A stretch of DNA of 64,000 bases, taken from assembly GCF_030013205.1 (NCBI RefSeq), contig NZ_CP122648.1; one strand, given 5' to 3'. Origin of the DNA: Escherichia coli (GTDB taxonomy: Bacteria > Pseudomonadota > Gammaproteobacteria > Enterobacterales > Enterobacteriaceae). Both the position numbers and the translations under genes were made by a program. The notes below the pieces were generated by a model. That model searched no databases and was not told where the DNA came from. It worked only from the letters and a program-made list of their open reading frames with translations. Position 1 is the first letter of the stretch. Every line of letters starts with the position of its first letter. Below, piece by piece: positions 1-31,398 of the stretch.

Positions 1-1083
1 TACGTTACCTCGAACGGACTTCATCTTAACGGCCACGCACTGGAATTGCGTACCTTCAACCTGCTGCACGTTATAGCTGCCGTATCCAGTGACATGCACT
101 GAGCCGCTAAAAGCGTCGCCAATCAGCATGCCATTTACCCACGAATACTGTAGCACCGTCAGGTCATCACGCCCCTGTTGAGGACCGAAATGCGCTCCTA
201 ATTTGAACTTCGCCCGGTGCGCAGTGAACATTTCCTCCCTGAGTGGAGTAAGAATACCGTACCGACCATTTCCGTTTTCCAGGCGAATCATGAATTTTCC
301 GATGTCGGTTTCTACCTGGGAATAACTGGACTCCGGGTAGCTAACGGCCAGACCTACGGTCGATGCTGAGTCAGCATCCTTCACGCATAACTGGGTTTCT
401 GTCCCAGCCGTATAAATTTTCACGCCATAGGGAACGGTTACGCACGCCGTTAGTGCGGAATCTCCTGTATGGTAGTTATCCATATCCAGAGAAACACCAT
501 TTGTAGGGCTCACCAGATATTTTCCTGCTGGCCAATAGAGTACCTTAGCTCCGCAATTGGACCAGCGGTTTAGGGCAAGAGTGTCATCTGCAATACCATC
601 TCCCTTTGCTCCGAAGTGGTAAGGGGTAAGGAGATAGGTGTTGTGCTGATGTTGAGTAATAGGTACAGAATCAGCATATGGCTGTTTAACAATAACAAGC
701 GCATCTCCTAGGCCAGTGTCAGGGTTTAATAATTGCTGTCGCAACTGATCCGGGTCATACTTCAGCACATTAGGAAAATAGAACTGCTGCACACCGTATG
801 CATCATAAACAGCCATCGAATGGCCTTGCACAGTTACGAACTTGGCAATCTGTCCGTTATATACCGGGTAACCAGCCGCATTAATGATGATTGGTTGCGA
901 AACAGGAACATGAGAACCGTCTTCGTTCTCTATATAAACCTGAATCTGGTTTTCAGGATTTACAGGGTCAGTGTCAATTTTACCGATATAAATTTTGCCA
1001 TTGGCTACGGCTTTAAAAGAACGCGCCATAGTGAAAAGTTGCGAAGGCATCGATACGATCACATTGGCTGTAATGTCTGTCAT
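1..1083 (-). CDS. Tailspike protein, partial (N-terminal 361 codons; gene runs off window start)
   Basis: ATG at 1083. N-terminus [59 protein letters not shown] matches the recalled head-binding domain of P22 gp9; the rest diverges. Confidence 0.8.
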
Positions 1084-1141: not shown

Positions 1142-1164
1142 AAAAAAACCCAGCCGAAGCTGGG
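1142..1164 (-). terminator. Intrinsic terminator between ant and tailspike
   Basis: Hairpin CCCAGC-CGAA-GCTGGG with a 7-nt U-tract on the minus strand. Confidence 0.55.
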
Positions 1165-1183
1165 TCGTTGCGTTGGTTATCTG

Positions 1184-2113
1184 TCAGTAGTTATGTACTG
1201 AAGGAGGTAATTCTTTATTCTTAAGTCTCATCCATGCAGAAAGATTCGTTGGTCCGCCTGGCTCATTGATATCAACATCTCGTGTGTGGTTGATTAAAAC
1301 GTCTCTCGCCATTCCGATAACATACGAGAATTCATGACCGTAGTCGTAGCATCTGCCGGAATAGTTCGATTGAATTTGTTTTAGCGCCGGATACAGTTCG
1401 CGGAATAATGCCTGTGAGCGGTTGGCATAATCCCATAACCATACAAGGCTGTTTGCTTCTTTTGCAGAAAGCTCGTTGGTTTTCTTCTCTTGTTTGCCAA
1501 TGAACTCACCTTCAAGTGGAACTCGAGCTGCAAGTGATAGTGCTTCGGTAAACTGCTCCTCACTGATTTCTTTGTACGAACATCCAAAATGGGATTTCAG
1601 TGACGACCACATGGTGATCATCGCCTTAGCCTGTTTTTCTTTTGGCAGAGACTGACCGCGACTCATGACGAGTTGTTTAATGGCTTCCTGCTGTTCAGTG
1701 GTGATTTTACCCGGCAACGCCTTTTTAGCTTTGCGTGGGTTAACTACATGGCCTTTAGTCCAGTATTCGTAGAGCACATCGTCACACTCTTCCTGATACT
1801 GGATTACCTTGTCGCGGATTTCAGGGCGTACTTTGTTAGGGCTAATGGTTTGCAGCCAACCTGCAAGTTTGCGAAGTGCCAAACAAATAATCTCACGGCG
1901 CTGTTCATCACCTGAAAGCTGCATTGTGATTTTCACAATGGAGGTTTTAAACCGCTGCTTCATTTTCGTAAACTGTGAAGCCCAATCCATACCCATACCT
2001 TCAACGATAGGTTTCATTGGGGTGTACGGCTCACCGTTGTGATTGACGACATAAAGCTCTGCGCCGTGGAATGGCACGTTGATAGTAGATACTGCTGTTG
2101 CTATACTTTTCAT
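1184..2113 (-). CDS. ant: Phage antirepressor (Ant-like)
   Basis: 309-aa ORF immediately downstream of the arc-like gene, in the position of P22 ant; N-terminus [47 protein letters not shown] resembles the AntA antirepressor family as recalled. Confidence 0.75.
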
Positions 2114-2179
2114 GTCAGTTTTTCCTCAAAATTTACTGGCGATTTAAGCCCGAGCTACTCGCAATAGCTTGGGCTTTAC

Positions 2180-2326
2180 TCATTCTGGACAAACAATTCC
2201 ATCCTTAGCTACTGACTCCTTTAGTCTCCTCAATACCTCATTACTGAACGACCGATCATCCTTTTTCGCGGACTGCTCCAAAGCCTTTTCCAGCCATTCT
2301 GGCATCCTTAATGTCTTAACTTTCAT
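2180..2326 (-). CDS. arc: Arc-like ribbon-helix-helix repressor, 48 aa (not in ORF track)
   Basis: Translated by hand: MKVKTLRMPEWLEKALEQSAKKDDRSFSNEVLRRLKESVAKDGIVCPE, with AAGGAG RBS 5 nt upstream. Sits between the divergent mnt-like gene and ant as in P22 immI. Confidence 0.7.
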   Translation of the reverse strand: MKVKTLRMPEWLEKALEQSAKKDDRSFSNEVLRRLKESVAKDGIVCPE

Positions 2327-2430
2327 TTTTGCTCCTTTGTATGTGGTACGCATACATAGTATTTAGGTACGCATTGATAGTCAATAGATACCTACATATC
2401 CTGTGGTAAAAAATTATTCAGGATGCGCCG

Positions 2431-2682
2431 ATGTCTGATCGTAAGTACAAAAACCCTCAAGTGAATCTGAGGCTTCCTGTAGAGATAAAGGAACGTCTTA
2501 TTGAACTGGCTGAGGCTAATTCTCGTTCATTAAATGCTGAGATGGTCGCAGCACTTGAAGCATGGACCGAAAAAAACAAACACATTCAAGCACTAGATCT
2601 TGCAACTATAGCATCGCGACTGATAGAGCTTGAGCATGATGTTGAGAAGTTAAAATGCATGCATGGCAATGGTGAAAAATGA
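2431..2682 (+). CDS. mnt: Mnt-like ribbon-helix-helix repressor
   Basis: 83 aa; N-terminal NLRLPVEIKERLIELAEANSRSLNAEMVAAL resembles the recalled P22 Mnt RHH motif; divergent from arc-ant. Confidence 0.7.
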   Translation: MSDRKYKNPQVNLRLPVEIKERLIELAEANSRSLNAEMVAALEAWTEKNKHIQALDLATIASRLIELEHDVEKLKCMHGNGEK

Positions 2683-2996
2683 AACGTATCGCTATCCTAT
2701 TGCTCCTGTGTCTCTCGAGCATAGCTAACGCAGAAACAAAATCAGACGATAGCAGTTTTGATGAAATACAAGGCCTCATGATAGCTTCGAAAATGGCTGG
2801 TATGTGTGGTGCAATCAAACAAATGGCAATATTCCAAGAATCTACAAACATGCCGGGTGGGAATGAATTCTTGCAGAGATTCCTTACTACAGAGCAAGCA
2901 AGGCTTGGGATGACTCCGCAGCAATTTCTTGAAGCATGTCAGAAATCAATCTCTATTTATACCACCTATTACAATATGAGCTCTGAGAAAAAATAG
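2679..2996 (+). CDS. Secreted protein of unknown function (moron)
   Basis: 105 aa with a signal peptide MKRIAILLLLCLSSIANA. Its ATG overlaps the mnt stop (ATGA). Confidence 0.55.
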   Translation: MKRIAILLLLCLSSIANAETKSDDSSFDEIQGLMIASKMAGMCGAIKQMAIFQESTNMPGGNEFLQRFLTTEQARLGMTPQQFLEACQKSISIYTTYYNMSSEKK

Positions 2997-3441: not shown

Positions 3442-3447
3442 TAATCA

Positions 3448-3470
3448 AGCCGGTTCACTCCGGCTTTTTG
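3448..3470 (+). terminator. Intrinsic terminator after the 74-aa membrane protein gene
   Basis: Hairpin AGCCGG-TTCACT-CCGGCT followed by TTTTT. Confidence 0.5.
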
Positions 3471-3820
3471 ATATGTCGCTCGCAGAACTCAACAAGCCTG
3501 CTCATTAAGTAGCAGTAAGTCTCGTTGGCTCTTCCTGGTTCAACATCAACACCTACCCTTGAGCAGATATCGAATGCCATGTGAGCGCACTCATGGGCAA
3601 TAGTAGATAGTTTGCCATTGAACACGCCTATCACATGCAAAACACCATTCTCGCTACTCATTGTATGAGACGCTCCGTTGGCGTCCGAGTCATGCACGTC
3701 AACGCCAAGTTTTTGATGCAGGCGTTGCCATTCTGGAAAGTCTCTACAAAACACAATTGTACCGCTCTCAAAGAGCGGAACGAGCATCTTTGGTACGTTT
3801 CCAATGTTAACTTTTTTCAT
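3455..3820 (-). CDS. Small HExxH-motif protein, putative zinc metallopeptidase-like (moron)
   Basis: 121 aa containing IAHECAHMAFD (HExxH) and several Cys/His residues; AGGA RBS. No homolog recalled. Confidence 0.55.
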   Translation of the reverse strand: MKKVNIGNVPKMLVPLFESGTIVFCRDFPEWQRLHQKLGVDVHDSDANGASHTMSSENGVLHVIGVFNGKLSTIAHECAHMAFDICSRVGVDVEPGRANETYCYLMSRLVEFCERHIKKPE

Positions 3821-4056: not shown

Positions 4057-6321
4057 TTACTTCTGGTTATCATCACTGTTCATCCAGTACATGATGCCTA
4101 GCCTTGATATGGTTTTCTTATCTGATTCTGGAAGTGAGTTGTAAAACGAGCGCCAAGCAGAAGAGCGTCTTACAGTTGTATCAACGATGCTTTCTGGTGC
4201 TTGTTTTACTGCCAGCCTTGCTGCTTTCTGGAATTCTGGTGAGCTAATTAGCTTTTCTGCAGATTCAATTGATTCAGCGCCGCCCATCGCCCTGATTTTG
4301 CTGGCGACTTTTGCCCCAATTTCTGACCCAGCAACAGCACCTACTGCACTGAACGGTCCTGACACAGTTGAACCAACCGCAGTGCCAATGCGTTGGGCAT
4401 GGTTAGCAACAAATTCATTTGCCGCAGTGACGCGATTAAACCGTTTGACGAACTCGTTTAGTCTTCCTGTAGTTATCTCGTAAGATTTTGCGTCTTTGAT
4501 AGCCTTTGCGACCTTATATACATCGTTCAGACCTGACATAGTCTCTTTTGGTAAATGTCGGGCAAGATTGCGCATCTGCCCGTTTGCTAACATGTTTTGA
4601 TACCAGTCAGCAAACCCTGCAGGATTAAAATCAGCGCCACGTTTTCCGTTCGAAAGCATATCCCGAAGACCTGTTCCCAGTAGCTCGGTTCTTAGCTTCC
4701 TGGACGGCGTGTTTTGCATCAATTCACGAAATCCTTTGGCATCGCCTTTCGACATTGCCTGTAGTGCTGTAGTTGCTTTGCGAGAAACATCACCGTTCAG
4801 CGTTCTGCCAGTTAGATTAATCATTTGCTCTTCCATGCTTTTTCGCATCTGAACAAGCCTCTGAGCAACTTCAAAATCACGTAATGCATTTGTCTCTGAC
4901 AGCGCCGCCTTTTGATCATCGGCGAGCGAACCGTAAAGCCTCGATAAAGCAGCGCGATCAGCATCTTTATATGGTCCAGAATTCTTATGAAGTGCATCAC
5001 CAACAAGTCGTCGTTGCTTATTGAGATTTGCATAAGTTAATGCGCCGTTCTTGCCTGGATTAATTGCCCGAAAGACTCTCTTTTCAATAGGGTCAAGGTT
5101 TTTCATCCCGCCAAGATCTTCTGCCACCTGTTTGAGCATTGACCTTGTTGATGGCGCATCAATTTTTGCACCTGCAGGCATCGCCTTTTCAACATTGCGA
5201 TAAAGCTGGTCGCTTCGTTTCATCAGCGCAGACATTCTTCCATTGACCGTATCAATAAACTTGTCGCTCATACCAAGAGCATCTTTTGCACCGGAAACGC
5301 GATCAATTATCTCCCCCGCGCCCTGTGCTAGCTGCCTGATTGCTTCATTTTCCTGCACCTGTAGAGCAGAACCCGCACGGGACTTGATTGCTTGCTCAAC
5401 TGCCTTGTATTGCTCGTTCCCGGAAAAGTGTGAAGGGAGTAATGAATCAACATTAAGCCTTTCAGCAGACTCCAGAACTTCAGCCTGAGGATTGATATCT
5501 AGTTCATCAAGCGATGAAGCGAGATTTGGCCTTTTTTGTGCTGCTACTGTGCGAACGACTTCCTCTGGGTTCCTCGTCGCAGGAGTCATTGGTACACCTT
5601 GTGCTGCTCTTGCCTCTGCGGCATGAACCGCAGGATTTGTTGCCTCTGCGGCATCACCGGAGAATGGTGATGTTTCTGTTGGCGCAGTGGTCGCTCTCTG
5701 TGCAGATGTTTTATTGCCACTAATTATATTTGATGCACCACGAACACCACGGGTAACGCCATTTATCAGGCCATGCGTAGCAATGTTAAGTCCGGCATTA
5801 ATAGCGGCATTTTCGGCAAAATCACCCTCCTGATTTGCAGCATCAGCAAGAGAACCTGCAATCATGTTTCCTGCGGAACCGATGTCTCCTGCGAGCTTTG
5901 CTGGCGCTCCAGCAACTTTTGCCGCTGTGCCAATTGGCAGGAGATACCCACCAATTGTTTCACCGGCTTGCGCCCAAGGGTCTGTCGGTCGATCGACAGG
6001 GCGATAAACATCATCCAAAACCTTGGGGCCACCAAGCCCCTGGCTGATTGCATTAATCAGACTTGCGCCACCCTGCAATACGTCAAATGGTATGTTTACC
6101 AGACCACGACCAGCCTGTTCTGCAATTTGCCCTGCGCTTTGACCACCAGTGAGCCAGTCAGTAGCTTTTCCCACCAGAGATTGTTCTTCTGGCTGCGATT
6201 GGTTTTGAGTGGATTGATCACCAGAAGACAGCATCTGAGCAATGCGACGTGCTCCCTCAGTATCGCCGGCAGCATCAGCATTCCTTAACGCCGTCATCAA
6301 CTGTTCACGACTATAGGCCAT
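4057..6321 (-). CDS. DNA ejection/transfer protein (P22 gp16-like by synteny)
   Basis: 754-aa ORF directly downstream of the gp20-like gene; Gly/Ala-rich segments. Confidence 0.7.
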
Positions 6322-7706
6322 TACTGCTCTCCGAGATATTTGCTAATTAATTCGTCATCGGACAATTGCTGTTGAGGTTGGCTATCGCCATAACTTGAGG
6401 AAAGAAAACGTTTTGCCGCAGAGTTCAATGACTCACCCTTCTTAACATCCATCCCCATGATGTTTCGGTTGCGATCAGATTGTCCTGGGCTGCCATTTGC
6501 ACTCATCCACTCTGACTTAAACTCGTTGAACTTCGCGTTATTACTTTCCATTTTTGCCATACCCCTTAACCATCGAGCCATGACCATTGGATTATCCGTT
6601 TCGCTTGGAATGCCTTTCCTTGCAAACTCAATATCCTTATCTGATGCAGGGCCGGGAGGGAGAAGCTTGGTTGCCTGCGCATTGGCTAGTTGGTTGAATC
6701 TAATCCGCATATCTCGGAGGTAGTTATCTTGCCCCGTAAGCTTAGAGAACATATTTTCAGCGTTACCGAACAAACCAGGAGTTGGCTTCTCCTTCTCCAG
6801 CGTGTCAGCGAGCGTTGTCATTGAATCGGCAGCATTACGACTAGCTGCCGCATCACCTGCTGATTTTTCTATAGCCTTTTCCATGTTCACTGATAATTTT
6901 GGCGCTGCATTAATAAGTTTCTCGGCCTTTTTTTGTGCCTGTTGTACTTCAAAACCGAATTTCTGCTTATCAAGTGCCAGTCTTTCTGCTGCAAGTCCGT
7001 GTCCGGTCATTGCAGACTGATAGGAAAGGTTTTGCCCCCTAATAGCCCTCGCATTCGTCATGTCATTATTGCGAATGGTTTCGTTAATTCTTTGCTGTTC
7101 CTGCTGGCGACCAACCATCTTATCCTGAACAGCAAACGCCTTTTCTGGTCCAAGCGCACCGAGAGACATAGTAGTCAGCATGTGTGATAGCTGCTCTGGA
7201 TTCTGGATACCTGTCTGAATCATCCAGTCAGCATTAGCACCAACGCGATTTAACCTGTCCTTGTTGTCAGTAATGAATTTACTGTAGGCTTCCGGCCCCT
7301 GAGAAAGAGCGACGTTAGCTCTCATGGCTAAATCGCCCATATCGTTGCGTTGCTGATCATTAAGACCTGAAAAAGCCTGTTGTGCCTGTGCAACAAACGC
7401 TGGATTTTCCTGGGCAAACTTAAATAGTCCCGATGGATCACCAGAAGCCCATGCATCAGCGTGAACCTTATTGAACGCCCTAATCGCTTTCTGTTGCTGT
7501 TCCTGCTTATAAATATCAGCAACTCCAGCCAGACCACGTAACGCGGTCAGACTAACGTTATTTGCACCTGATCGAGACAGTTCATTGTTTTCGCGGATCA
7601 GACCAAGCGTTGCATTAATGTCGCTTGCCTTTGGCGCATTCTCGTTTTGCGCACCAATGCCAGCCAGAAAACCACCAGAATTAATACCCTGTTGCCACGT
7701 AGCCAT
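6321..7706 (-). CDS. DNA ejection/transfer protein (P22 gp20-like)
   Basis: 461 aa, the size of P22 gp20, in the gp7-gp20-gp16 order. Confidence 0.7.
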
Positions 7707-7716
7707 TGATTACCCC

Positions 7717-8409
7717 TTAAAACAGTGAACCAAGCAGACCAAGACCAGCACCGATACCAGCACCCCACGGAGTTGATAGCTCGAGAGCACTGGCTATGCC
7801 ACCACCCAAAAGCGCACCGGATGCAGCACCACTAACCCCCTGCTGCAATGCTGACGGTCGGTTGGCATTTGCCGCAGCCAGCGCCGCGCTTTGCTGTGAA
7901 ATCTGACTCATGTTGTTGGCATATGTTTGCCCGGCGTTTGCCTGCCCCTGAAGAGCGCCAAGACCGATATTTGCCAGGTTGTTGTAATTGTTCATTTGTC
8001 CAGATAGCCATTGCTGACCAAGCGTTGGTGCGATTGTTGCTAACTGATTACTGGTTGCGGTGGAACCCAATCCACCTGTTGCTTCCGCTGCCGCAAGACT
8101 CTGATAGCGAGCCTGACCTGAAAGGTCTTTATACTGCTGAGAGTTGTAATACTGGTTAAGTGCCTGACCTTGCCCTTCCAGAGACGATAAGTTCTCGAGG
8201 CTGCCGACATACTTATCAGCCAGAGGAGTAAACGGCTTCAGGTTGTTCATGATGGTGTTGAACTGCTGATTTTGCAGGTCTGCTGCATACTTCTGAGCTT
8301 CTGCGGCATACTTTGCACTTTTATCAGAACTGCCACCTTTCCCGCCTTTTTCAGGGCAATAAGGTTCCTCGCCGCGCAGTTTTCTGCCCAGCTTAAATGC
8401 ATATAACAT
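7717..8409 (-). CDS. DNA ejection/transfer protein (P22 gp7-like)
   Basis: 230 aa starting MLYAFKLGRKLRGEEP with a Gly-rich C-terminus, recalled as typical of P22-like gp7. Confidence 0.7.
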   Translation of the reverse strand: MLYAFKLGRKLRGEEPYCPEKGGKGGSSDKSAKYAAEAQKYAADLQNQQFNTIMNNLKPFTPLADKYVGSLENLSSLEGQGQALNQYYNSQQYKDLSGQARYQSLAAAEATGGLGSTATSNQLATIAPTLGQQWLSGQMNNYNNLANIGLGALQGQANAGQTYANNMSQISQQSAALAAANANRPSALQQGVSGAASGALLGGGIASALELSTPWGAGIGAGLGLLGSLF

Positions 8410-8411
8410 GG

Positions 8412-8870
8412 CTATCTCCCGTGCTTCAGGAAGTCGATTAGTTCTTCGCGTGTGGCGCTGTAAAACGTCACGTCATCCACGCCTTTGAAGTATTTCTTGA
8501 TGGTTCCTACACGCTTAAGGCCAATCATTGCGCAGTACATCTGCCCGTGGCGGAATTTGCGTGCAGCGAACGATGTGACGCACTGAACGGTGGTGTTAGT
8601 CAGAATGTATCGCCAGAACGCCAGCCCGATTTCCTTGCTGAAGCCGCGAATCTCTGGCAGGTACATGGCGTGGCAATCAAAGGTCAGCGGCTGAATCTCC
8701 TGATAGTAAACAATTCCGCCGAACTGCCCGTGCACGTTCACCTCAAAGTAACGGCATTCAGGCTTGTAGTCGTATCCATCGCCGTTGTTGCTCCCGGCGA
8801 TAATGTCAGGGTGATTTCCTACTGCTTCGATCAGGTCGATGTTTCGCGTTGGTTTGAAATGAATCATCAC
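8412..8870 (-). CDS. Phage protein between needle and ejection genes (gp14 position)
   Basis: 152-aa ORF, start overlapping the needle gene stop. Assignment is by synteny only. Confidence 0.5.
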
Positions 8871-9688
8871 TGCTCCGCGATTATCTTGATGGTTGTGGCA
8901 GTAAACGCCGCACCATTCGACTGAATGGTTAACGTGCTGCCATTTGTGGCAAGAAAGCCGTCTTTATCCACGCTGAAGAACGTAGCTAACAGGATGTTGT
9001 CGGTTGTTGTCGCTGAGTTGCGACTGCTTACCAGTGTGTCAGGAACAGAACCGGAAAATGTTAGCTGCATTGACCTGTTGGCGGTTCCGCTGGGCCACGT
9101 CCCGACGATCGACAGCTTGAAGAACAAGGTTTTGTTCTCGTTGAACACAACCATCTTGTTGTTAACGGTGTCGAAGAATGGTGCCAACGTGCCGGATGAC
9201 GGCGTGAGCGTTTTCAGCAGGCTAACAAGGTTGGTAGGCGCTGTCGGAATTGTTACCGATACCCCTGAGTAAACAACCTCTGATTTCTTGCGCGTGGTGG
9301 CATACTCAAGCGCAGATATTCTTGTTGCGTGATCACCAACTGTGCTTTGTAGCGTCGAAATACTTCCCTCTGCCGCTGTGAGCCTGGTATCAAGTGCGTC
9401 GATATCGGTTGTATTCTGAGTTATGCGCGCATCATGGTTTGCTAACTCAGATTCATTGGCAGCAATTCGCGTATCGTGATCAGCCAGCTCTGTTTCAGCA
9501 GCCGTAATCCTTGTTTCATGATCTGCAAGAGTGCTTTCCGCTGTTGCAATTCTATGTTCATGATTGATGAGAGTTGCTTCAGCAGCTTCAATTCTGGATT
9601 CATGGTCTGCAAGGGTGACATCCTGCTCATCGTTCCTAACCTGTGCATCATAAGCGCCCTGTCCGGCCTCGTTGGCTTTGTTAGCCAC
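8867..9688 (-). CDS. Tail needle (P22 gp26-like) with coiled-coil repeats and C-terminal knob
   Basis: GTG at 9688. [20 protein letters not shown] and ADHESRI heptads match recalled gp26. The frame stays open upstream to the coat stop, encoding [30 protein letters not shown] (gp26 N-domain-like) with no in-frame ATG. Confidence 0.75.
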
Positions 9689-9838
9689 GTTACCAACATC
9701 AGTGCCCTGTGCGATAACGTAAAGCAGATACGACTGCGAGAAGATATTGCGTGGAAGGACTGATGTGTCGAGCCGTGTAGAGCATTGTTCGTGCCATTGT
9801 CTTCTCCCAATAAAAATGGGGCCGAAGCCCCACCAAAA

Positions 9839-11092
9839 TTACTGCCCGGCAATAACGATGCCCGTATATTCAGGAACAAGTACAGAGCAACCGTACAGAG
9901 TGGTGAAACGCGCAGTGGTTACGCCTTTGATGTGGTCGAAGGCGTAAGACATGATCAGCGTAGCGCCCTGCTCGGTGGTTGCTGTCATTACCTGTGGACC
10001 CTGACCAGTCGGGAACGCCAGTTTGCCGTACATCAGCTCAACAGAACCATCAGCCCAGAACAGGTTGGCCGGTGCGGCATTCTTGTTGAGAATGGTGATT
10101 GCTGCGCTACTTGCCGCGTTAGCATCAACGTTTGCATATGGTCGGCTGGCGACATCCGCGTTGTCAGGCGGCAGAATTTTCGGGGAGATAGTTACTGTCG
10201 TTCCGCTTACTGCCAGAACGCGGAATACCTGCGGCTGCCCGGTGGTATCTTTGGTGATCTGGTGTACGGAATTAACCCCTGCAATGGTAAACGCATCGCC
10301 AACCTGCAAACCTTCAGCAGATACCGTAATGGTCCCCTGTCGGTTATCCACTGGCATATCGTTAGCATCTTTCGCTTCAACCTTGTGCGCAGGTGCTGCT
10401 GCCAGCGTAATGGAAGTTGCTGTACCCTTCGGAACACGACCAGAAATATCGGTCTTGTAGCTATCGAAGGACGCAACAGGAGGGATCTGCGCTTTTTCGT
10501 ATGCTGTCAGGGTTGCGCCCTGAGCATAGGCACGGTGACCAAGCTCGCCAGCAAGGTCTTTGTAGTTGAAGGGGTTCCAGAAAGAGCGACGATTGATACC
10601 CTGCGGTACACCAATCGCCGTCATGGTGGCATCAATACCTGCCGCACAGTTCCACAAATCACGGCCCTGTGTACCTGTGGTTGAGTCAGCCATCGTGATC
10701 ACGTTAGTAGCACGCTGCGTGACCATGGAAATCAGGTCCGAGTCAATCTGTGCAGCAAGGCGCATACCTGCGGCGCGACCAGCTTCAGTTTTATGTTCCG
10801 GGTCACGCATTTCACGCGCATCCAGAGTGTACAGAATGTTTTTCGGCTCCTTGAACACAGAAGGAACAAGGCGCTGAACCAGTGCTGTTGGCGTTTTGCT
10901 GCTGAGGTCGAGGCCTTCCTCAATGTTCATGTGGTAATGCTGCGGACGATACAGAACATCACCTGCTCGCTGCATTGCTGTATCACCGGGACGGAATTTT
11001 TTAGCGTTACGGGAAACTACGCAGGCGGCCTCAAAGCCTTCAACGTAGTTTTCGAACATGATTTCAAGGTCTTTTGCTAATTGGTTAGCCAT
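9839..11092 (-). CDS. Major capsid (coat) protein, P22 gp5-like
   Basis: 417 aa following scaffold; C-terminal region similar to recalled P22 coat. Confidence 0.8.
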   Translation of the reverse strand: MANQLAKDLEIMFENYVEGFEAACVVSRNAKKFRPGDTAMQRAGDVLYRPQHYHMNIEEGLDLSSKTPTALVQRLVPSVFKEPKNILYTLDAREMRDPEHKTEAGRAAGMRLAAQIDSDLISMVTQRATNVITMADSTTGTQGRDLWNCAAGIDATMTAIGVPQGINRRSFWNPFNYKDLAGELGHRAYAQGATLTAYEKAQIPPVASFDSYKTDISGRVPKGTATSITLAAAPAHKVEAKDANDMPVDNRQGTITVSAEGLQVGDAFTIAGVNSVHQITKDTTGQPQVFRVLAVSGTTVTISPKILPPDNADVASRPYANVDANAASSAAITILNKNAAPANLFWADGSVELMYGKLAFPTGQGPQVMTATTEQGATLIMSYAFDHIKGVTTARFTTLYGCSVLVPEYTGIVIAGQ

Positions 11093-11110
11093 GCTTAATG
11101 CTCCGATAGG

Positions 11111-12004
11111 TTATTTTTTTGCCTTTTTAGCGGCGAAATACGGCGTCCAGTCACCAGTTTCCAGCGCCTTGGCTTTCAGTTTGTCGAGGTTATTGATTAC
11201 TGCGCCGTTGCTCCCCTTAACTGTCGGGGTTGTGGCTGCCGTGGTTTTTGCTTTTGGCATGATTCTGGCCTTCGATTCGATACGTTCCAGCAGACGACCA
11301 ATTGCTACGGGGTTGGTAGCTTCTGCCAGTTGCTTGCGCAGTTCAGCGTTGCGACCGAGCGCCAGAACAACGATTTCCGGCTTCTCTGACTCAAACAGGA
11401 TCGCGTTTTGTGTCTCGATGGGGATTTCCTCGAGTACGGCCTGTTCTGCTTCCTGATAGCCAGGAACCTTGAGAGCCTTAACACGTTGCTGATATTTGGA
11501 TAATCGCTCTTGATAGGCAGCCTGAAGCTCCTGCTCCTTCTGCTTGCGAGCCATCTCCTGTTGCTGGTACTTGCCGTTATCCTCTGCCCACTTAGCCATG
11601 CGTTGCTGATAGATTTCTTCATCGAAACCGATGTCCTCATCATCCAGTTTTGGCATTCGCGGTGGTTGAGTGATTACCGGCTGCTGCTCGACAGGTTTCT
11701 GAGACTGACGCATCAGCTCTTTCAGCTCGCGGTCTTTCTCTTTAATCGTCTTGCGCAGGTGTTTTACCAGTCCATGCTCTGCGCTATCTTCACTGGTTGG
11801 CGAATCCAGCTTTTCGTCACCAAAGTAGAATTCCTGTTCTGATTCGTCGTCATCAGTTTCAGTAGCTTCCTCTGCATCATTGCCGGAGGACTCACTGCCA
11901 TCTTCTGTTTCGACTTCTTCAGCCAGTTCGACATCATCAGGAATCTGCTCTGATGTATCGGTTTCGATTTCAACTTCTGGTGTGTTTTCTGCCATCTGGT
12001 CCAT
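11111..12004 (-). CDS. Scaffolding protein
   Basis: 297 aa, highly acidic N-terminus, Lys/Glu-rich helical protein between portal and coat. Confidence 0.8.
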   Translation of the reverse strand: MDQMAENTPEVEIETDTSEQIPDDVELAEEVETEDGSESSGNDAEEATETDDDESEQEFYFGDEKLDSPTSEDSAEHGLVKHLRKTIKEKDRELKELMRQSQKPVEQQPVITQPPRMPKLDDEDIGFDEEIYQQRMAKWAEDNGKYQQQEMARKQKEQELQAAYQERLSKYQQRVKALKVPGYQEAEQAVLEEIPIETQNAILFESEKPEIVVLALGRNAELRKQLAEATNPVAIGRLLERIESKARIMPKAKTTAATTPTVKGSNGAVINNLDKLKAKALETGDWTPYFAAKKAKK

Positions 12005-12094
12005 TTGTTACCCCTGTTTACTCGATGTTCAGCCCATCGGAAGGCAATAGGGTGCCAGGCCTCATAAAGACAGCCATTGCACGTTATGGGTTAA

Positions 12095-14293
12095 TTACTG
12101 CTGTGGTTGTTGCTGAGTTGATTTTTGCAGGATGCTGCTGATGTCCATGCGCTGCGCATGGCCCTGTGCCTGACTTTTCAGGACAAGCTCTGCATCAGCA
12201 CGGGCATTGTCTCCTTGCTGTTGCTGGAACTGTCCGAGCAGTTTCAGCGCCTCACGGATATCAGATTTCTGCTGACTATCGGCAGATGCGAGTATTTTCA
12301 CAACATTTGCCGCTGCAACCTGAGCATCAGTCTGTGCCTGGAATGCTTTAACCTGAATGGCTGCCTGTTCGTTCTGCGCTTTCTGCAATTCAGCCTGACC
12401 AGCAAGAAGCTGACCTTGCGCTGCAACCATAGCCGGATCTGGCTGACTGGCCTGTTGTTGTTTCGCCTGTTCAACCATCTGCTGTTCTTCTGGCGTTCTC
12501 GGCTTGATAACTCCAGACAGAAGCAACTGATTGCGGTTGTATTCTTTAAGGTCGTCCATCCCTTCGCCGTCCATATTGTCGAGGATCATCGACGATACAA
12601 GGTCGTGTTTCGGCGTTCCGGGCGGGATAAGTGCCAGCATGGAAAGTAACGACTTAACCGTTGCATCACGGCGAGTAGCGAACGACTGACCAACATCGAC
12701 AGTCACTTCATAGTTACCCTGCGAAAGGTCGTTAAGCGCGATAACCTGCCCTGTCTGACGGTCAACCACTTCACCAGTCATCAGCGCCACGTCATCGCTG
12801 CCGTCCTCATTAACGATACGCATCGGCGTATCACTGCCATAGACCTCACGCGCCATAGAAAGCCACACAACGCCAGCGCGACGCATGGATTTAGCCATGT
12901 TGTCCATGTAGATATAGGACTGCGTGTCCATCCGGTTAAAAATGCTATCAACGGTATCGGTGGCGACGTTGCTCGGCATGTTCTCAAGCTGCGACGCACC
13001 TGTAATTTGCTGAATAGCCGTTCCGGTGTACTGCAATAGCCCGGCAAGAGCTGGAGGCATTTGTGTCGGAGGCGTATAACTGCTGACCTGAGCCTGCGCA
13101 GTAATATCTCCGTTTTTGTTTTTCAGACTGACCATCGGCAGGAACGCCGGGCGCTTTTTGTTGCGCTCCGCCCAATGAGTGGCGAGAGGACCAGGAATCA
13201 TGTCAACATCAACTACAGGAATGCCATCACCGCCAGCCTGAGTAGCGTTATCTGCAATCATGGAAACCATCAGGTTCTCAAGACGCTGTGCATCCATCGC
13301 TTTTGCTGCGTGACCTTCGATTCGCTCCTGATTATCAACAAATGATCGACGCCCATATACCGGGATGAGAGGAATATGTTCGCCCGGAATACGCTTCGGT
13401 TCTTCCAGCCATTCAGCGCCAGACAGAAGACCGCAATAAACGCGGCGCTTCTTCACCGTTCGCTCGCCAATCAGTTCGAATGCACCATCGGTCAGCTCGT
13501 CGACAATATCTTTGATTTGCTCTTCATCATAAATTGCCGTTTCTCCGCTAACAGGGTTGCGCCACGCCGTGAGCTTCACCTTCTCTATGCGAACTTCGTA
13601 GTAGCGTCCAACATAGATGGCATCGGGCGTTGACCAGTCATACTGAGTACCAGTGTCATCACGAGAAAGGCTTGCTGCGATGGAATCAGGGTATTCAGCC
13701 TCGAACGCTTTGGGCGTCATGGAGAACATTTCCATAGCCCACATAGCATCAGAGCGGTCATATTGCTTGCTGTCCTGATCGAAGAAGACGCATGTCGCTG
13801 GGTCGTAAACAGGAAGAAGGCTGATGCGTCGCTGCTCGTTACTCGGATCCATTTCATCTTCGTAATCGGCACACATGCGGAAACAACCGAATCCGCCCGT
13901 TACAGCATCATCAAATGCGTTATCACACGCTTCACCACCGGATGTTTCCTGATAGTCAGCGCGGAATTTACCATTCATCTTTTCGGCTAACGCTTCCGAT
14001 GCCTTATCGTCCTTCGGCCTGAATTTAACGCTGATGCGATTCTGTCGATACTCGCCAATGATGCGATCACATTCACGGGCAATCTTATTCAGTTCAAAGC
14101 GCGGGTAATGCTCAAACCTGCCTTCATCAAATGAGTAACCAGCGTTTGTGCTGCCTTCCCACTGTGCGCCGGATACCCGGACGAAACGTTGAGCCTCAAT
14201 AATCTGCTCACGCATATCCTGCGTTGCTGACCAGGCATTATCAAAGTTGCACAGCACCTTGCGATGCCAGTCAGTCATCTTTTTTTCTGCCAT
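12095..14293 (-). CDS. Portal protein, P22 gp1-like
   Basis: 732 aa; C-terminal PRTPEEQQMVEQAKQQQASQPDPAMVAAQGQLLAGQAELQKAQNEQ closely resembles the recalled P22 portal barrel region. Confidence 0.9.
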   Translation of the reverse strand: MAEKKMTDWHRKVLCNFDNAWSATQDMREQIIEAQRFVRVSGAQWEGSTNAGYSFDEGRFEHYPRFELNKIARECDRIIGEYRQNRISVKFRPKDDKASEALAEKMNGKFRADYQETSGGEACDNAFDDAVTGGFGCFRMCADYEDEMDPSNEQRRISLLPVYDPATCVFFDQDSKQYDRSDAMWAMEMFSMTPKAFEAEYPDSIAASLSRDDTGTQYDWSTPDAIYVGRYYEVRIEKVKLTAWRNPVSGETAIYDEEQIKDIVDELTDGAFELIGERTVKKRRVYCGLLSGAEWLEEPKRIPGEHIPLIPVYGRRSFVDNQERIEGHAAKAMDAQRLENLMVSMIADNATQAGGDGIPVVDVDMIPGPLATHWAERNKKRPAFLPMVSLKNKNGDITAQAQVSSYTPPTQMPPALAGLLQYTGTAIQQITGASQLENMPSNVATDTVDSIFNRMDTQSYIYMDNMAKSMRRAGVVWLSMAREVYGSDTPMRIVNEDGSDDVALMTGEVVDRQTGQVIALNDLSQGNYEVTVDVGQSFATRRDATVKSLLSMLALIPPGTPKHDLVSSMILDNMDGEGMDDLKEYNRNQLLLSGVIKPRTPEEQQMVEQAKQQQASQPDPAMVAAQGQLLAGQAELQKAQNEQAAIQVKAFQAQTDAQVAAANVVKILASADSQQKSDIREALKLLGQFQQQQGDNARADAELVLKSQAQGHAQRMDISSILQKSTQQQPQQ

Positions 14294-14294
14294 A

Positions 14295-15710
14295 TCAACC
14301 TACACCACAAGGAATTGAGTAACTGGAATAGTCGGGTTGCGCAGCCGACTCTGGGCAATGCATACACATCATCAGCGCATCAGCCAGGTTAGGAGATGGA
14401 ATACCGAGCTTCTGCTTCATTTCGACCTTAGTCATAAGCTCCAGCTTCCCGTTGTTATTGAATTTGCGCTGAATCTGCGTCAGTTCTGCAAACAGCTTCT
14501 CCAGCATCTTCTCGCCTATCGCTTCTTTGTCAAAACTCAGCATGTCGTCGGGGTCCGCATACTCACCGTGAACAACCGCCCGATATGTCAGATACAGCCT
14601 GTCAGCCAGCGCGTAATAGAATTGCGCTCGCTTATTGCGGAATACATCGCCAATAGTGCGAACGTTGTCGCCCTGTACGGCTTCATCAGCCCATGCTCCG
14701 GCCTGATAAGGCGAATCTTCATCAAATGGCGATTCGCTGCCCTTGAACATCGTGGCGGTGATTTTCTTACCGGAGAACGCTTCCGCTGTCTGTCTGCGTA
14801 GACCTGCACCAACACCATCACCATCCCACAGGTAATGGTCAGCGCCGTCTTCAATAGCCAGCGAAGTAGCCCAGTCAGCACCCTCGTTGATGTCCATCAG
14901 CAGGCCTTCGGCAATGCGCTTAACAACCGAACCGTGACGCGATGCATAACCTTTAGCATCTGGCCCTGTATCTGATGGGTCATGTGCAGAAACAACCGCG
15001 CCTTTCGCTTTCCATCCGAGTTTCTTGTGCGCATCGGTTGCGGCTTCAAGCCATTCACGTTTGATGATTGCCATATCACTTGCGCTTACTGGCTCACCAA
15101 GCCAGATGTGACGATACAGTGTCTGATTTCTGCGTTTACACTCTTCCATCTCCAGACGGAGAACTTCAGGAAAATGCGGGTTGTCGGTGTAGTTCACCGT
15201 CAGCAGGCAAATATCATCGGGAGGATTTACAACGAATCGCTGATAGGTATCGTCGAGGATGTTCTTCGGGTTAAAGCTCACCCATATTTCGGAAAACGGC
15301 TTGCGGATGGTTGGTATCAGGATGTCCCATGATTCCTTTGTTACCGCTTCCGCTTCTTCCACCCAGCAGATATCAATGCCTTCTAGCGATTTAATCTTCG
15401 TTGGGTTGTTTTTTATGCCGTAGAACATGAATTCAGCATTCGTTCCGAGATGACGAATCATTGAACGCTGAATTTCAAACTCAGCCGAATACCCTTCACG
15501 CTCGATGGTGTCTTCAAGCAACCGGATTACCGAATCGCTGATACTGTTTTGCAGTTCACGAGCGCAGAGAATACGCACAGGCTGCCGACGCGCCGCTTCA
15601 ACAAGCAGCCTCGCAATTGCCCATGACTTACCGCTACCTCGACCGCCTTTGGCGACTTTGTAGCGATGCGCCTCAATGAACGGTTCAAAGATAGGATTAA
15701 TCGAGGTCAT
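14295..15710 (-). CDS. Terminase large subunit
   Basis: 471 aa with Walker A-like KGGRGSGKS near the N-terminus; sits between terS and portal. Confidence 0.9.
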   Translation of the reverse strand: MTSINPIFEPFIEAHRYKVAKGGRGSGKSWAIARLLVEAARRQPVRILCARELQNSISDSVIRLLEDTIEREGYSAEFEIQRSMIRHLGTNAEFMFYGIKNNPTKIKSLEGIDICWVEEAEAVTKESWDILIPTIRKPFSEIWVSFNPKNILDDTYQRFVVNPPDDICLLTVNYTDNPHFPEVLRLEMEECKRRNQTLYRHIWLGEPVSASDMAIIKREWLEAATDAHKKLGWKAKGAVVSAHDPSDTGPDAKGYASRHGSVVKRIAEGLLMDINEGADWATSLAIEDGADHYLWDGDGVGAGLRRQTAEAFSGKKITATMFKGSESPFDEDSPYQAGAWADEAVQGDNVRTIGDVFRNKRAQFYYALADRLYLTYRAVVHGEYADPDDMLSFDKEAIGEKMLEKLFAELTQIQRKFNNNGKLELMTKVEMKQKLGIPSPNLADALMMCMHCPESAAQPDYSSYSIPCGVG

Positions 15711-16147
15711 TTTCCGAATAGAGTGCTCATCGGTGATGTTTCAATCTGAATTGCGCCGCCGTCTTTGCCTGTTAGCTCGTGATCAACCTTGTCGCGCCAT
15801 TTATCCTTCTGTCGGTTCTTAAGCCAGAAGATGGCAGCGGTTGTATCAGGCGGGTAATACTTCTCAAGCGGAGTTTCGACAATTCTGTTTTCAATAACAC
15901 GAATATCGATGTCTGGAGCCACGAAGCCCATAGCGCGTTGATAAAGACGATCACTAACTTCTGCATCAGCGACGGCCTTACCCTTTTTTATGGACTCCGA
16001 AAACTTAGGATAATCAATCTTCCACTTGTTAATAGTTGACTCACTGACTTCAAAGAAATCAGCAAGTTCTGCATCGGTGTAGCCCAGCAAGCACAGTTTG
16101 CGTGCCTGTTCGGCATACGCCTCTTGATACTTTGTTGGGCGCGCCAT
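15707..16147 (-). CDS. Terminase small subunit
   Basis: 146 aa with N-terminal HTH-like region, overlapping the terL start. Confidence 0.8.
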   Translation of the reverse strand: MARPTKYQEAYAEQARKLCLLGYTDAELADFFEVSESTINKWKIDYPKFSESIKKGKAVADAEVSDRLYQRAMGFVAPDIDIRVIENRIVETPLEKYYPPDTTAAIFWLKNRQKDKWRDKVDHELTGKDGGAIQIETSPMSTLFGK

Positions 16148-16149
16148 GT

Positions 16150-16392
16150 TTATGCTCCGGTGGTGAACAGGTCTAACGCTTCCTTCGATTTACGCACCGC
16201 TTCGATAGTGCGGGTCGTGATATCCGAATTAGCGCCGCCTGACTGGAAGTGAATTTTGAATAGTTCAAGCTTCAGCTCGTCAGTGCCAATGAACTGAAAT
16301 GCTTCTTCTGCGGCTGCGTTCTGGTTCATGACCAGTTTGTAAATCTCTAACTGGAATTTCTGTTCTTCAGTCATGGGAATAATCTCTGCCAT
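16150..16392 (-). CDS. Hypothetical phage protein upstream of terS
   Basis: 80-aa ORF tightly packed against terS. Confidence 0.45.
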   Translation of the reverse strand: MAEIIPMTEEQKFQLEIYKLVMNQNAAAEEAFQFIGTDELKLELFKIHFQSGGANSDITTRTIEAVRKSKEALDLFTTGA

Positions 16393-16495
16393 TGTTGGCT
16401 CCGTTTATCCGTTAAAAGGGATATCAGTTAAGTTATCCCGTGTAGGGTATAAGCCATTATCAAAGCCACTCTGTAGGGAATGGCTTTTGTAATAA

Positions 16496-16876
16496 CTACT
16501 GTTCGCTTAGCTTCTGCTTCAGCAAGTAACCTTCGAGCATCCAGATTTTGTTTACAGCATTCTGCCGGGCAATCTTCCGACCAATTTCTGCATCAAAGTT
16601 TTCCGGGCTTGCACAGGCACTCTCTCCGGTAACGGTGAAGCCATTCTTCAGCACCAGTACGCAGAAAGTGAGCAACTTCAATGGTGATAAATCACGATCG
16701 CCTTCTTCTGGTTTTTCCCTGCCACAATATTCGTTGCTGGAAATGGCACCATTTCGTCCATCATAAGCAGTAAAGTAATGCTCGCTTTTAATCACGTCTT
16801 CGATGTGCTGCGGGGTGATTCGCGGTGCCGTTTTGCCTTTCTCAACGATTTCTTTTTCGATTTGCTGGTCGTTCAT
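16496..16876 (-). CDS. Phage protein of unknown function (possibly Gp49/Sf6 gp66-like)
   Basis: 126-aa ORF between the lysis remnant and terS; family assignment is recalled from position only and is unverified. Confidence 0.5.
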   Translation of the reverse strand: MNDQQIEKEIVEKGKTAPRITPQHIEDVIKSEHYFTAYDGRNGAISSNEYCGREKPEEGDRDLSPLKLLTFCVLVLKNGFTVTGESACASPENFDAEIGRKIARQNAVNKIWMLEGYLLKQKLSEQ

Positions 16877-17114
16877 AATTATGACCCTGTGGAGTGGTTG
16901 CTTGATTAGGATGTCTTTCCATCAGTCCGCCACCACAAAGAATCTTTTTTGCCATAAGGCTGGAGGTTCATCTTTCAGTGGCTGCCAGTGTTATTTCCCC
17001 ACTTACTGGCTTGGGTTGTTTCGCTGTACTGCCGTAACTGGTTACCCAGAATAAATTTTGGTTTCATTATCAAGCCCATCCGTAGATAGGCTTTGTAATG
17101 AACTGGCTCTTATC

Positions 17115-17267
17115 TCAACGCAGCCCCTTACCGCGCGCCAGATGCTCAATATCAAGCATCAGCAATGAGATGTTTAATCTGGATTCACTCCAGAAGTGAT
17201 CACCACCCTGTCTACAGAGCCAGATGTGAAGGATGATGAGTAGAATTATCGCTATCATCGAAGGCAT
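17115..17267 (-). CDS. Possible small ORF (50 aa) downstream of Rz remnant
   Basis: Hand translation MPSMIAIILLIILHIWLCRQGGDHFWSESRLNISLLMLDIEHLARGKGLR with AGGA RBS; start overlaps the Rz stop. Could be spurious. Confidence 0.25.
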   Translation of the reverse strand: MPSMIAIILLIILHIWLCRQGGDHFWSESRLNISLLMLDIEHLARGKGLR

Positions 17268-17480
17268 TGCGTCCTGATGTACTCCTGCAGGTAGTTAACC
17301 TGCGCGGTTATCCTGTCGATTCCACTTCGGAGACGGTAATAATTGAGTTCAGCATCTGCTGTAAGTCTTGGGCTTTCTCCATCGCCCATGCCGCTGGCTC
17401 TGGTCGTTGACTTTGCACAGGTGGCGGCGACTTGCAGGCGCTTACGACCAGCAGAAACATCAGCACGGAGACTTTCGATA
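17255..17480 (-). pseudogene. Rz: Rz (i-spanin) remnant, C-terminal part only
   Basis: ESLRADVSAGRKRLQVAATCAKSTTRASGMGDGESPRLTADAELNYYRLRSGIDRITAQVNYLQEYIRTQCLR aligns with the recalled lambda Rz C-terminus. The upstream part of the ORF has no Rz-like TM/N-terminal region and overlaps xis antisense. Confidence 0.65.
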
Positions 17481-29600: not shown

Positions 29601-29602
29601 GA

Positions 29603-31065: not shown

Positions 31066-31078
31066 TGGTAACCCCTTA

Positions 31079-31230: not shown

Positions 31231-31398
<168 letters not shown>

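Follow-up and report, generated by a model that had tools for sequence, protein, structure and literature searches.

Positions 1147-2682 of the window (the whole 64,000-nucleotide stretch of E. coli DNA analysed here) very probably hold an allele of the P22 immI type that is complete, heteroimmune, and intact in sequence, carried by a defective P22-like prophage and working as in P22 by homology (probability about 0.85). A complete immI-like module (mnt, arc, and ant) had been predicted from the DNA, and this reading is upheld by gene order, domain content, and location between ejection-protein and tailspike genes, all of which match P22. The module is a divergent member of a well-known system, and is ordinary and already annotated.

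Gene content of the module

The genes, their domains, and their order were observed directly and are as follows.

1-1083, minus strand: tailspike gene (equivalent of P22 gene 9), 5' portion with the head-binding domain, next to ant on its downstream side; PGAP
1147-1166, minus strand: intrinsic terminator after ant; terminator scan (8-pair stem, 5 GC pairs)
1184-2113, minus strand: ant, antirepressor, 309 aa; Pfam, PHROG 245, BLASTP to P22 Ant
2180-2326, minus strand: arc-like gene, 48 aa, ribbon-helix-helix (RHH); Pfam Arc, BLASTP to P22 Arc, PDB profile, AF2, PGAP
2332-2337, minus strand: Shine-Dalgarno sequence AAGGAG of arc, read from the sequence and invariant in the control-region alignment (five divergent loci)
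2431-2682, plus strand: mnt-like gene, 83 aa, N-terminal RHH and long C-terminal helix; Pfam, PDB, AF2, Foldseek
2679-2996, plus strand: 105-aa ORF with signal peptide; PHROG 19844, unknown function (1e-69); PGAP hypothetical WP_000820796.1

Gene order and orientation are those of P22 immI (mnt, arc, sar, and ant; X01916), where the module likewise adjoins the tailspike gene. The description of an RHH pair flanking ant as in P22 needs rewording: the two RHH genes are adjacent and divergent, with ant downstream of arc, which is the exact P22 order (mnt <- | -> arc-ant). As anticipated, the Ant-like protein contains both antirepressor domains, each above the Pfam cut-off [P22_AR_N, 152 bits (7.7e-45); P22_AR_C, 104 bits (4.5e-30)]. 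It matches PHROG 245 'anti-repressor Ant' (1e-97) and is 58% identical to P22 Ant, which has the same two domains (pairwise BLASTP with X01916, 2e-123); the last ~113 residues are ~90% identical, counted by hand in the BLASTP alignment. The terminator hairpin after ant is GACCCAGC-TTCG-GCTGGGTT, followed by TTTTTAT. PGAP annotates the tailspike gene as 'phage head-binding domain-containing protein', at window positions -989 to 1083.

Upstream of ant, as in P22, lies a gene for a small Arc-family protein, found at 2180-2326 where it had been proposed. Its frame reaches an upstream ATG at 2353 in the ORF listing; the true start is at 2326, giving 48 aa, because AAGGAG lies 5 nt upstream, this box is unchanged across five divergent loci, and all homologues start MKVKTLRMPE. 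In the record of strain ET245, the equivalent arc region is a 41-aa 'hypothetical protein'. The 48-aa protein scores above the Pfam Arc cut-off (PF03869; 24.6 bits, cut-off 20.4) and is 31% identical to P22 Arc (53 aa) over 39 aa (pairwise BLASTP with X01916, 6e-6); its family profile matches single-chain Arc (pArc; 1.1e-4) and Arc (0.055) in the PDB. The AF2 monomer model (coil 1-9, helix 10-22, helix 25-41) has low confidence (pLDDT 64), as expected for an obligate intertwined dimer, and its predicted secondary structure is compatible with strand-helix-helix. Foldseek of this model against the PDB gave no useful structural match, and assignment of the 48-aa protein is based on the sequence and profile evidence instead. 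The claim that this gene is unannotated and would be missed by default annotation did not hold, as PGAP lists it in ETEC4079 (NZ_CP122643.1) as WP_021528598.1, 'Arc family DNA-binding protein', which is also its NCBI protein-family name. The concern is real for older or other records, such as those of CUS-3 and ET245.

The divergent mnt-like gene is likewise placed as predicted, at 2431-2682 on the plus strand, and encodes a protein with homology to both Mnt and Arc. It is 83 aa long, as is P22 Mnt, exceeds the Pfam Arc cut-off (40.2 bits, cut-off 20.4), and is 42% identical to P22 Mnt over 36 aa, within the RHH domain only (pairwise BLASTP with X01916, 5e-11). It matches Mnt in the PDB (1mnt, 4.5e-5), and its family profile matches pArc (8.8e-11), Arc (3.5e-8), and Mnt (2.4e-7). 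The AF2 model has helices at residues 17-30, 34-48, and 57-79, the last being a long helix after the RHH domain, and its best Foldseek matches are P22 Arc chains (probability 0.99). Thus, the RHH fold predicted for both small proteins is supported by Pfam matches above cut-off and by RHH-compatible predicted structures. Unlike in P22, a gene for a secreted protein is coupled to mnt: the ATG of the 105-aa ORF overlaps the mnt stop codon (ATGA), and this overlap suggests that the two are probably co-transcribed.

A defective host prophage

E. coli ETEC4079 carries the module in a P22-like prophage that occupies the lambda attachment site and retains its late genes, with immI between the genes for ejection proteins and tailspike (PGAP), which is the 'ant moron' site of P22-like phages (PMC2629481). 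The early-region deletion that had been proposed was observed directly: a truncated Rz/Rz1 runs straight into xis-int, and PGAP annotation of the source genome shows no lysis, Q, replication, immC, or N genes. A ~2.7-kb interval that contains the gp4 and gp10 genes in strain UMNF18 is also missing. Copies 100% identical to this one occur in four strains, all porcine enterotoxigenic E. coli (ETEC); the two records that were opened are both from Belgium. The mnt/arc/antirepressor triad recurs elsewhere, in P22-like elements with a Bro-N plus P22_AR_C antirepressor and in a Yersinia contig, which is probably from a contractile-tail phage since it also encodes a sheath-initiator-domain protein.

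These losses give weight to the idea that the cassette is an inert relic, intact only because prophage decay is recent, silenced for good by Mnt and sar, and without effect on the cell or on phages. We regard this as quite possible, at somewhat less than even odds. Besides the missing early genes and gp4/gp10 interval, head genes have been lost through another, IS2-associated deletion in the sister strain ETEC4068 (100% identical over a 1.65-kb query), and the four identical copies are no evidence of selection because the strains are probably clonal. Against it, the three ORFs, Shine-Dalgarno sites, promoters, palindromes, and terminator are all intact, and a P22-like prophage in UMNF18 that occupies this site and is apparently complete encodes identical Arc and Mnt proteins. 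This alternative concerns the present-day role of the module, not its identity, and is compatible with a P22-type immI allele.

Control region and putative antisense RNA

The 104-bp control region between the arc-like and mnt-like genes contains two conserved palindromes and a pair of candidate promoters arranged back to back; the promoter-like hexamers and the palindromes were observed directly.

2338-2356: palindrome P1 (TGTATGTGGTACGCATACA), 19 bp, covering the predicted Pant start, where P22 has Omnt; candidate operator
2356-2384, minus strand: candidate Pant, -35 TTGACT (2384-2379), 17 bp, -10 TACTAT (2361-2356); promoter scan 9/12
2365-2395: palindrome P2 (TAGGTACGCATTGA-TAG-TCAATAGATACCTA), covering the -35 hexamer and spacer of each promoter; second candidate operator
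2374-2402, plus strand: candidate Pmnt, -35 TTGATA, 17 bp, -10 TATCCT; promoter scan 9/12

Five divergent loci keep both candidate Pant hexamers, and an alignment read by eye places a TAnnnT hexamer at the Pmnt -10 position in five loci. The number of promoter-like matches across the region (5) shows no excess over that expected in shuffled sequence (5.1), and conservation and position are the only grounds for proposing these candidate promoters. Their -35 hexamers abut, whereas the two P22 promoters overlap fully.

All 11 loci fetched with this type of Arc have an identical P1, which is not found in P22; P22 has its own palindrome at the Pant start. P2 is an inverted repeat with 18-nt arms (78% complementary), in which the arms are conserved and the three central bases vary. 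The Pant hexamers, the Shine-Dalgarno sequence, and P1 are invariant even though the Arc and Mnt proteins are only 57-67% and 36-47% identical, respectively, across loci. No match to P22 Omnt or Oarc within 3 mismatches occurs anywhere in the window. The absence of the P22 operators, with two other conserved palindromes in their stead, indicates that the module is a heteroimmune allele and not P22's own immI.

The palindromes share elements. The 9-mer GGTACGCAT is present in both, its two copies 21 bp apart, so that assigning one protein to each palindrome is uncertain, and boxes at 2345 (GGTACG), 2366 (GGTACG), and 2387 (GATACC) keep the same 21-bp spacing. The predicted DNA-reading strand of the Mnt-like protein (PQVNLRLP) resembles PQFNLRWP of P22 Arc more closely than PHFNFRMP of P22 Mnt. 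An unlikely alternative would divide labour between Mnt and Arc differently than in P22: the 83-aa protein, with its Arc-type head, would bind three GRTAYC boxes 21 bp apart (2345, 2366, and 2387) and control both promoters, and the 48-aa protein would use other contacts. This rewiring is favoured by the repeated 9-mer with an inverted GATACC 21 bp further on, by the Q-N-R reading residues shared with P22 Arc, by a family profile that matches Arc as well as Mnt, and by the promoter geometry unlike that of P22. By contrast, P1 is the likelier Mnt site when its position is compared with P22. Assigning operators by covariation of reading heads and palindromes failed, because none of the fetched loci shows any variation in either head or in the boxes.

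Two further elements lie at the arc-ant junction.

2079-2107, plus strand: candidate Psar, within ant codons 3-12; TTGATA, 17 bp, TATACT with a TG extension
2114-2180, plus strand: sar-like antisense RNA, ~67 nt, over the ant ribosome-binding site, with a GC-rich hairpin at its end; Rfam, fold

In P22, the arc-ant gap holds the antisense RNA sar. The RNA fold was observed directly as two hairpins (-25.9 kcal/mol, z -5.9), and single-sequence folds recover this two-hairpin architecture in seven homologous loci with differing stem sequences; MAFFT with RNAalifold misaligned the 5' hairpin and recovered the terminator stem alone. The window RNA aligns to Rfam RF00262 over its full length (1-68; E 0.0037) at 29.3 bits, below the gathering cut-off of 43, as does the SEN22 RNA (32.4 bits); those of P22 (97.8) and CUS-3 (84.6) lie above it. 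Position and fold identify the window RNA as a putative sar that falls outside RF00262 by Rfam's score criterion. Candidate Psar is the best promoter match in the region (10/12) and ends 6 nt upstream of the RNA. P22 and loci with a Bro-N-type Ant are among the six that keep its -10 block, T.GCTA.A.T right before CAT. The RNA was not part of the original prediction, and it is the part of the module genuinely unmarked by current annotation.

By analogy with P22, we infer the pairing of proteins with palindromes, the logic of regulation, and the activity and targets of Ant. The Mnt-like protein, expressed from Pmnt and probably oligomerising through its C-terminal helix, would bind across the Pant start in the control region, thereby keeping arc-ant off. 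The constitutive ~67-nt sar-like RNA, starting just inside ant, would pair with the ant ribosome-binding site and block translation of escaped message. On loss of Mnt, Pant would fire and Ant would be made; the Arc-like protein would then build up and shut down Pant again, and probably Pmnt as well. Ant would bind and inactivate CI/C2-type prophage repressors. With immC gone from the prophage itself, the switch would have no target in cis, and would be idle or act only on other phages.

Action of Ant on other resident lambdoid prophages, as raised in the original prediction, is plausible and not new, because antirepressor cross-talk between prophages is published: the antirepressor of one Gifsy or Fels prophage acts on the repressor of another (Lemire et al., 2011, cited in PMC7380047), which is a precedent for such cross-action here. 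Synthesis of the Gifsy/Fels antirepressors follows SOS induction and LexA self-cleavage (reviewed in PMC7380047), whereas control in the window would be by Mnt, Arc, and sar. We consider it very doubtful that the cassette is both kept as an autonomous orphan antirepressor switch acting on other lambdoid phages and wired unlike P22, with an Arc-type reading head on Mnt and three boxes phased at 21 bp. Such a switch would, for example, wake competing resident prophages or break their immunity when Mnt control lapses.

A last reading, in which the RHH pair are antitoxins or partition/plasmid-type regulators beside a Bro/KilA-like gene by chance, draws on the label 'partition protein ATPase' of PHROG 795 and 2685 (both matched by the 83-aa protein) and on weak NCBIfam matches to a RelB-like antitoxin and TprA, far under cut-offs, but is effectively refuted by direct similarity to P22 Arc and Mnt, by synteny with P22 immI including the putative sar, by the lack of an adjacent toxin or ParA-type gene, and by the absence of PADLOC hits for the 48-aa and 83-aa proteins. 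The PHROG label is a mis-annotation, as an RHH protein of 83 aa cannot be an ATPase. For the module and its neighbours, NCBIfam and PADLOC gave nothing informative.

Related immI modules and significance

Known modules close to the P22-type allele in the window include those of phages CUS-3 and SEN22. The control region of the CUS-3 'ant moron' (CP000711) is near-identical over 2338-2430, from P1 to the mnt start (3 differences in 93 bp), its Mnt is 95% identical to the window protein, and the two ant genes are close relatives, with 92% DNA identity over the stretch that matched. In 2008, arc was reported as apparently absent from CUS-3 (PMC2629481). We find an Arc homologue there as an unannotated 46-aa ORF (Pfam Arc, 33.8 bits) in a region labelled 'boundary sequence'. 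CUS-3 differs from the window in its sar of the P22 type, in an additional Cys-rich ORF (67 aa) lying between arc and ant, and in carrying two mnt genes, the second of the P22 type; the locus has no operator of that type. Genes 18-20 of Salmonella phage SEN22 encode the same Arc (48 aa, annotated as 'Arc-like repressor'), and this locus has the same control region and sar variant and a Mnt 87% identical to the Mnt-like protein; its ant is split by a transposon, whereas ant in the window is intact.

The practical value of these findings is small and lies mostly in annotation. The immI type of CUS-3 and the window does have an Arc repressor, which corrects the conclusion drawn in 2008 that modules of this kind have no arc and must be under a different control (PMC2629481). 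The divergent sar-like RNA of this immI type falls under the Rfam cut-off, so that RNA annotation based on the cut-off would miss the window copy. The module could also interest students of RHH DNA recognition, as a second, naturally occurring version of the classic Arc/Mnt operator system that differs in its operators and promoter geometry. Whether the orphan Ant affects other prophages in this pig ETEC strain would be an unsurprising question.

Genes and proteins of the immI-like module

The assignment of an immI-like mnt/arc/ant module to 1184-2682 was correct, as domains, P22 similarity, and gene order all agree. The order is identical to that of P22 immI, whose parts list agrees with PMC2629481: mnt and arc are divergent, and ant lies behind arc. 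The original prediction had the two ribbon-helix-helix (RHH) genes flanking the antirepressor gene, which is wrong: the small genes sit side by side in divergent orientation, and ant comes after the 48-aa gene.

Genes of the module (ORF listing and direct reading) and its terminator (terminator scan)
1147-1166, terminator after ant
1184-2113, minus strand, ant (309 aa)
2180-2326, minus strand, arc-like ORF (48 aa)
2431-2682, plus strand, mnt-like ORF (83 aa)

The arc-like ORF has two possible ATGs, at 2353 (57 aa) and 2326 (48 aa). An AAGGAG box that is invariant across five divergent loci sits 5 nt upstream of the 2326 ATG, and 17/17 aligned Arc-like homologues begin with MKVKTLRMPE. These sequence features imply that ATG 2326 is the true start, and that the coordinates first proposed for this gene (2180-2326) stand.

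The 48-aa protein matched Pfam Arc (24.6 bits; cut-off 20.4) and is 31% identical to P22 Arc over 39 residues (6e-6), compared to which it is six residues shorter at the N-terminus. Its family profile matched single-chain Arc (1.1e-4) and Arc (0.055) in the PDB. A low-confidence AlphaFold monomer (pLDDT 64) places helices 10-22 and 25-41 after an extended N-terminus, a predicted RHH layout offset by six residues; a Foldseek search with this model gave no match. The 83-aa protein scored 40.2 bits against Pfam Arc and 4.5e-5 against the PDB Mnt structure 1mnt, and its family profile matched single-chain Arc (pArc; 8.8e-11), Arc (3.5e-8), and Mnt (2.4e-7). Its model (pLDDT 77; helices 17-30 and 34-48 and a long helix 57-79) had P22 Arc chains as top PDB structural matches (probability 0.99; TM 0.70 on target). 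In length, extra C-terminal helix, and divergent position it agrees with P22 Mnt, whereas its DNA-reading strand (PQVNLRLP) is nearer that of P22 Arc (PQFNLRWP) than that of P22 Mnt (PHFNFRMP). Thus, Pfam Arc and PDB profile matches predict an RHH fold for both small proteins.

The antirepressor domains expected of Ant are likewise present (P22_AR_N, 152 bits; P22_AR_C, 104 bits; Pfam), and Ant matched PHROG 245 'anti-repressor Ant' (1e-97). Against P22 Ant, identity is 58% overall (2e-123) and about 90% over the last ~113 residues by manual count on the alignment. The 3' two-thirds of ant plus the terminator (1144-1875) share about 93% identity with 'antirepressor' genes from >200 Stx-converting phage records, which do not share the N-terminal ~80 ant codons or the arc/mnt control region; ant is therefore a mosaic gene. 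The first ant codons, M-(K/N)-(S/I)-(I/V)-A, and an embedded -10 box (2079-2113) are conserved in five other homologous loci (L003, L005, L006, L009, and L010), even where the remaining antirepressor is Bro-N and not P22_AR_N, which suggests that recombination of the regulatory cassette has its boundary just within ant.

A putative sar-like RNA and the arc/mnt control region

The Rfam sar model aligned end to end (1-68) with 2114-2180 on the plus strand (29.3 bits; E 0.0037; gathering cut-off 43), which is antisense to ant and exactly fills the arc-ant gap. Six bases ahead of the predicted sar-like RNA start, at 2107, is the end of the region's best-scoring promoter match (TTGATA-17-TATACT plus a TG extension). 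This segment is predicted to fold with sar architecture, in which a 5' hairpin with an anti-Shine-Dalgarno in its loop is followed by a GC-rich terminator hairpin (-25.9 kcal/mol; z -5.9). The corresponding segments of SEN22, CUS-3, P22, and three metagenomic or genomic loci all have this predicted fold, with stems that differ in sequence (z -3.7 to -5.9). P22 and CUS-3 scored 97.8 and 84.6 bits; since the window and SEN22 (32.4 bits) both fall below 43, they carry a divergent putative sar variant that annotation at the Rfam cut-off leaves unmarked.

Candidate control elements within the 104-bp region 2327-2430
2338-2356, palindrome P1, covering the predicted Pant start
2365-2395, palindrome P2, covering both -35 hexamers and both spacers
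2384-2379 (TTGACT) and 2361-2356 (TACTAT), minus strand, candidate arc-ant promoter Pant (promoter scan)
2374-2379 (TTGATA) and 2397-2402 (TATCCT), plus strand, candidate mnt promoter Pmnt (promoter scan)

The candidate promoters are back-to-back, with base 2379 common to both -35 hexamers. Promoter-like sites are no commoner here than in shuffled sequence (5 observed; 5.1 expected). Support for them comes from conservation: five loci in which Arc and Mnt identity falls to 63% and 36%, respectively, retain both Pant hexamers and have TAnnnT at the Pmnt -10 position. Each of the 11 fetched loci that encode this Arc type has a P1 identical to the last letter, whereas P22 has none, and a sequence search did not find the P22 operators in the window. 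Copies of the 9-mer GGTACGCAT lie at 2345 and 2366, and inverted GATACC at 2387 completes three boxes with 21-bp spacing. By position, P1 would be the counterpart of Omnt and repress Pant only, and P2 would be the counterpart of an Arc-type site acting on both promoters. Covariation between reading heads and sites allowed no assignment, because both heads are invariant across the family.

In P22 immI (work of Susskind, Sauer, and McClure), Pant is silenced by Mnt in the lysogen, sar prevents translation of ant, Arc restrains the Ant burst once Pant fires, and Ant inactivates C2/CI-type repressors non-covalently. This logic likely holds for the present allele, whose sequence contains no contradiction to it: the Mnt-like protein would keep Pant off in the lysogen, the sar-like RNA would block ant translation, the Arc-like protein would limit the Ant burst upon Pant firing, and Ant would inactivate C2/CI-type repressors non-covalently. 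One rival reading, in which the cassette is a silent relic, is compatible with the same identification. Wiring unlike that of P22 is suggested by the GGTACGCAT boxes common to both palindromes, the Arc-type reading head of the Mnt-like protein, and promoter geometry that is not P22's. A toxin-antitoxin or partition reading of the RHH genes is excluded by synteny.

Host prophage and distribution

The source-genome annotation of the Belgian porcine isolate ETEC4079 (NZ_CP122643.1; 100% identical to the first 19 kb of the window) places the module in a P22-like prophage at the lambda attachment site, which lies between ybhB and ybhC. Prophage genes run from tailspike through immI, small ORFs, ejection proteins, needle, capsid, scaffold, portal, and terminase to truncated Rz/Rz1, xis, and int. 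The predicted lack of an early region was borne out: the prophage has no holin, endolysin, Q, nin, replication, immC, N, or recombination genes, and truncated Rz/Rz1 runs directly into xis-int. The UMNF18 prophage is apparently complete, occupies the same site, and encodes Arc and Mnt proteins identical to those of the window. Compared to it, a ~2.7-kb gp4 and gp10 interval (packaged-DNA stabilisation; 28809-31547 of UMNF18 locus L012) has no counterpart in the window, where 8869-9778 contains about 0.9 kb; this is a second defect beside early-region loss. In ETEC4068 (L002), an IS2-associated deletion has removed the 11-kb head and ejection stretch (window 6156-17493), replaced by IS2 copies, a truncated acyltransferase, and DUF551 genes, whereas immI is 100% identical, which implies stepwise decay of one prophage. 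In ET245, the module sits in a different IS-damaged prophage, located at argW. The whole module is present in 96/5,426 complete E. coli genomes and, across 50,697 phage records, is essentially confined to CUS-3, SEN22, and a single unverified Salmonella record. Antirepressor cross-talk has been documented for Gifsy and Fels prophages (PMC7380047), which makes it plausible that Ant could act on other prophages resident in the cell.

Two neighboring ORFs were also observed. A 105-aa ORF (2679-2996, plus strand; PHROG 19844) starts on the terminal ATGA of mnt, and its product begins with a typical signal peptide (MKRIAILLLLCLSSIANA/ETK). Co-expression with the maintenance repressor gene in the lysogen is probable, and the ORF is a candidate for a role in lysogenic conversion or exclusion. 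A 121-aa ORF (3455-3820, minus strand; PHROG 1365) had no Pfam, NCBIfam, or PADLOC match; its HExxH motif (TIAHECAHMAFD) suggests a small zinc metalloprotease, and a bidirectional terminator-like hairpin (3447-3466) lies at its 3' end.

Annotation status and the CUS-3 module

The 48-aa gene, thought to be unannotated, is named in ETEC4079 RefSeq as 'Arc family DNA-binding protein' (WP_021528598.1), which is also the NCBI family name; the SEN22 copy is an 'Arc-like repressor'. At the arc position of ET245 (L013 13081-13206) is a 41-aa 'hypothetical protein' (WP_223196799.1), and thus arc annotation is not uniform across RefSeq.

The CUS-3 GenBank record (CP000711; locus L001) labels the arc region 'bsq2; boundary sequence', and the epsilon-34 genome paper (2008; PMC2629481) stated that arc is apparently missing from ant morons of the CUS-3 and HS-1 type, which may therefore control ant differently. 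Inside bsq2 we found an unannotated 46-aa Arc homologue (L001 5272-5412, minus strand; about 6759-6899 of the record; Pfam Arc 33.8 bits) that starts MKVKTLRMPEKLEK, shares the MKVKTLRMPE head, and has a GGAGGA box upstream. The CUS-3 and window control regions are almost identical. Together, these sequence comparisons show that the CUS-3 ant module does have Arc, correcting the literature. CUS-3 additionally has a 67-aa Cys-rich ORF (CCFC...CSDC; L001 5072-5275, minus strand) between arc and ant, without a Pfam match, and a second, P22-type mnt (L001 5799-6047, plus strand). The 9.7-kb CUS-3 locus contains no P22-type Mnt operator, and this second mnt may be an orphan immunity gene aimed at P22-type phages.

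We conclude that the module belongs to the P22 immI family as a divergent, heteroimmune member. It is an ordinary system for which protein-level annotation already exists, to which the putative sub-threshold sar variant, the new candidate operator and promoter layout, and the correction for CUS-3 are modest additions.
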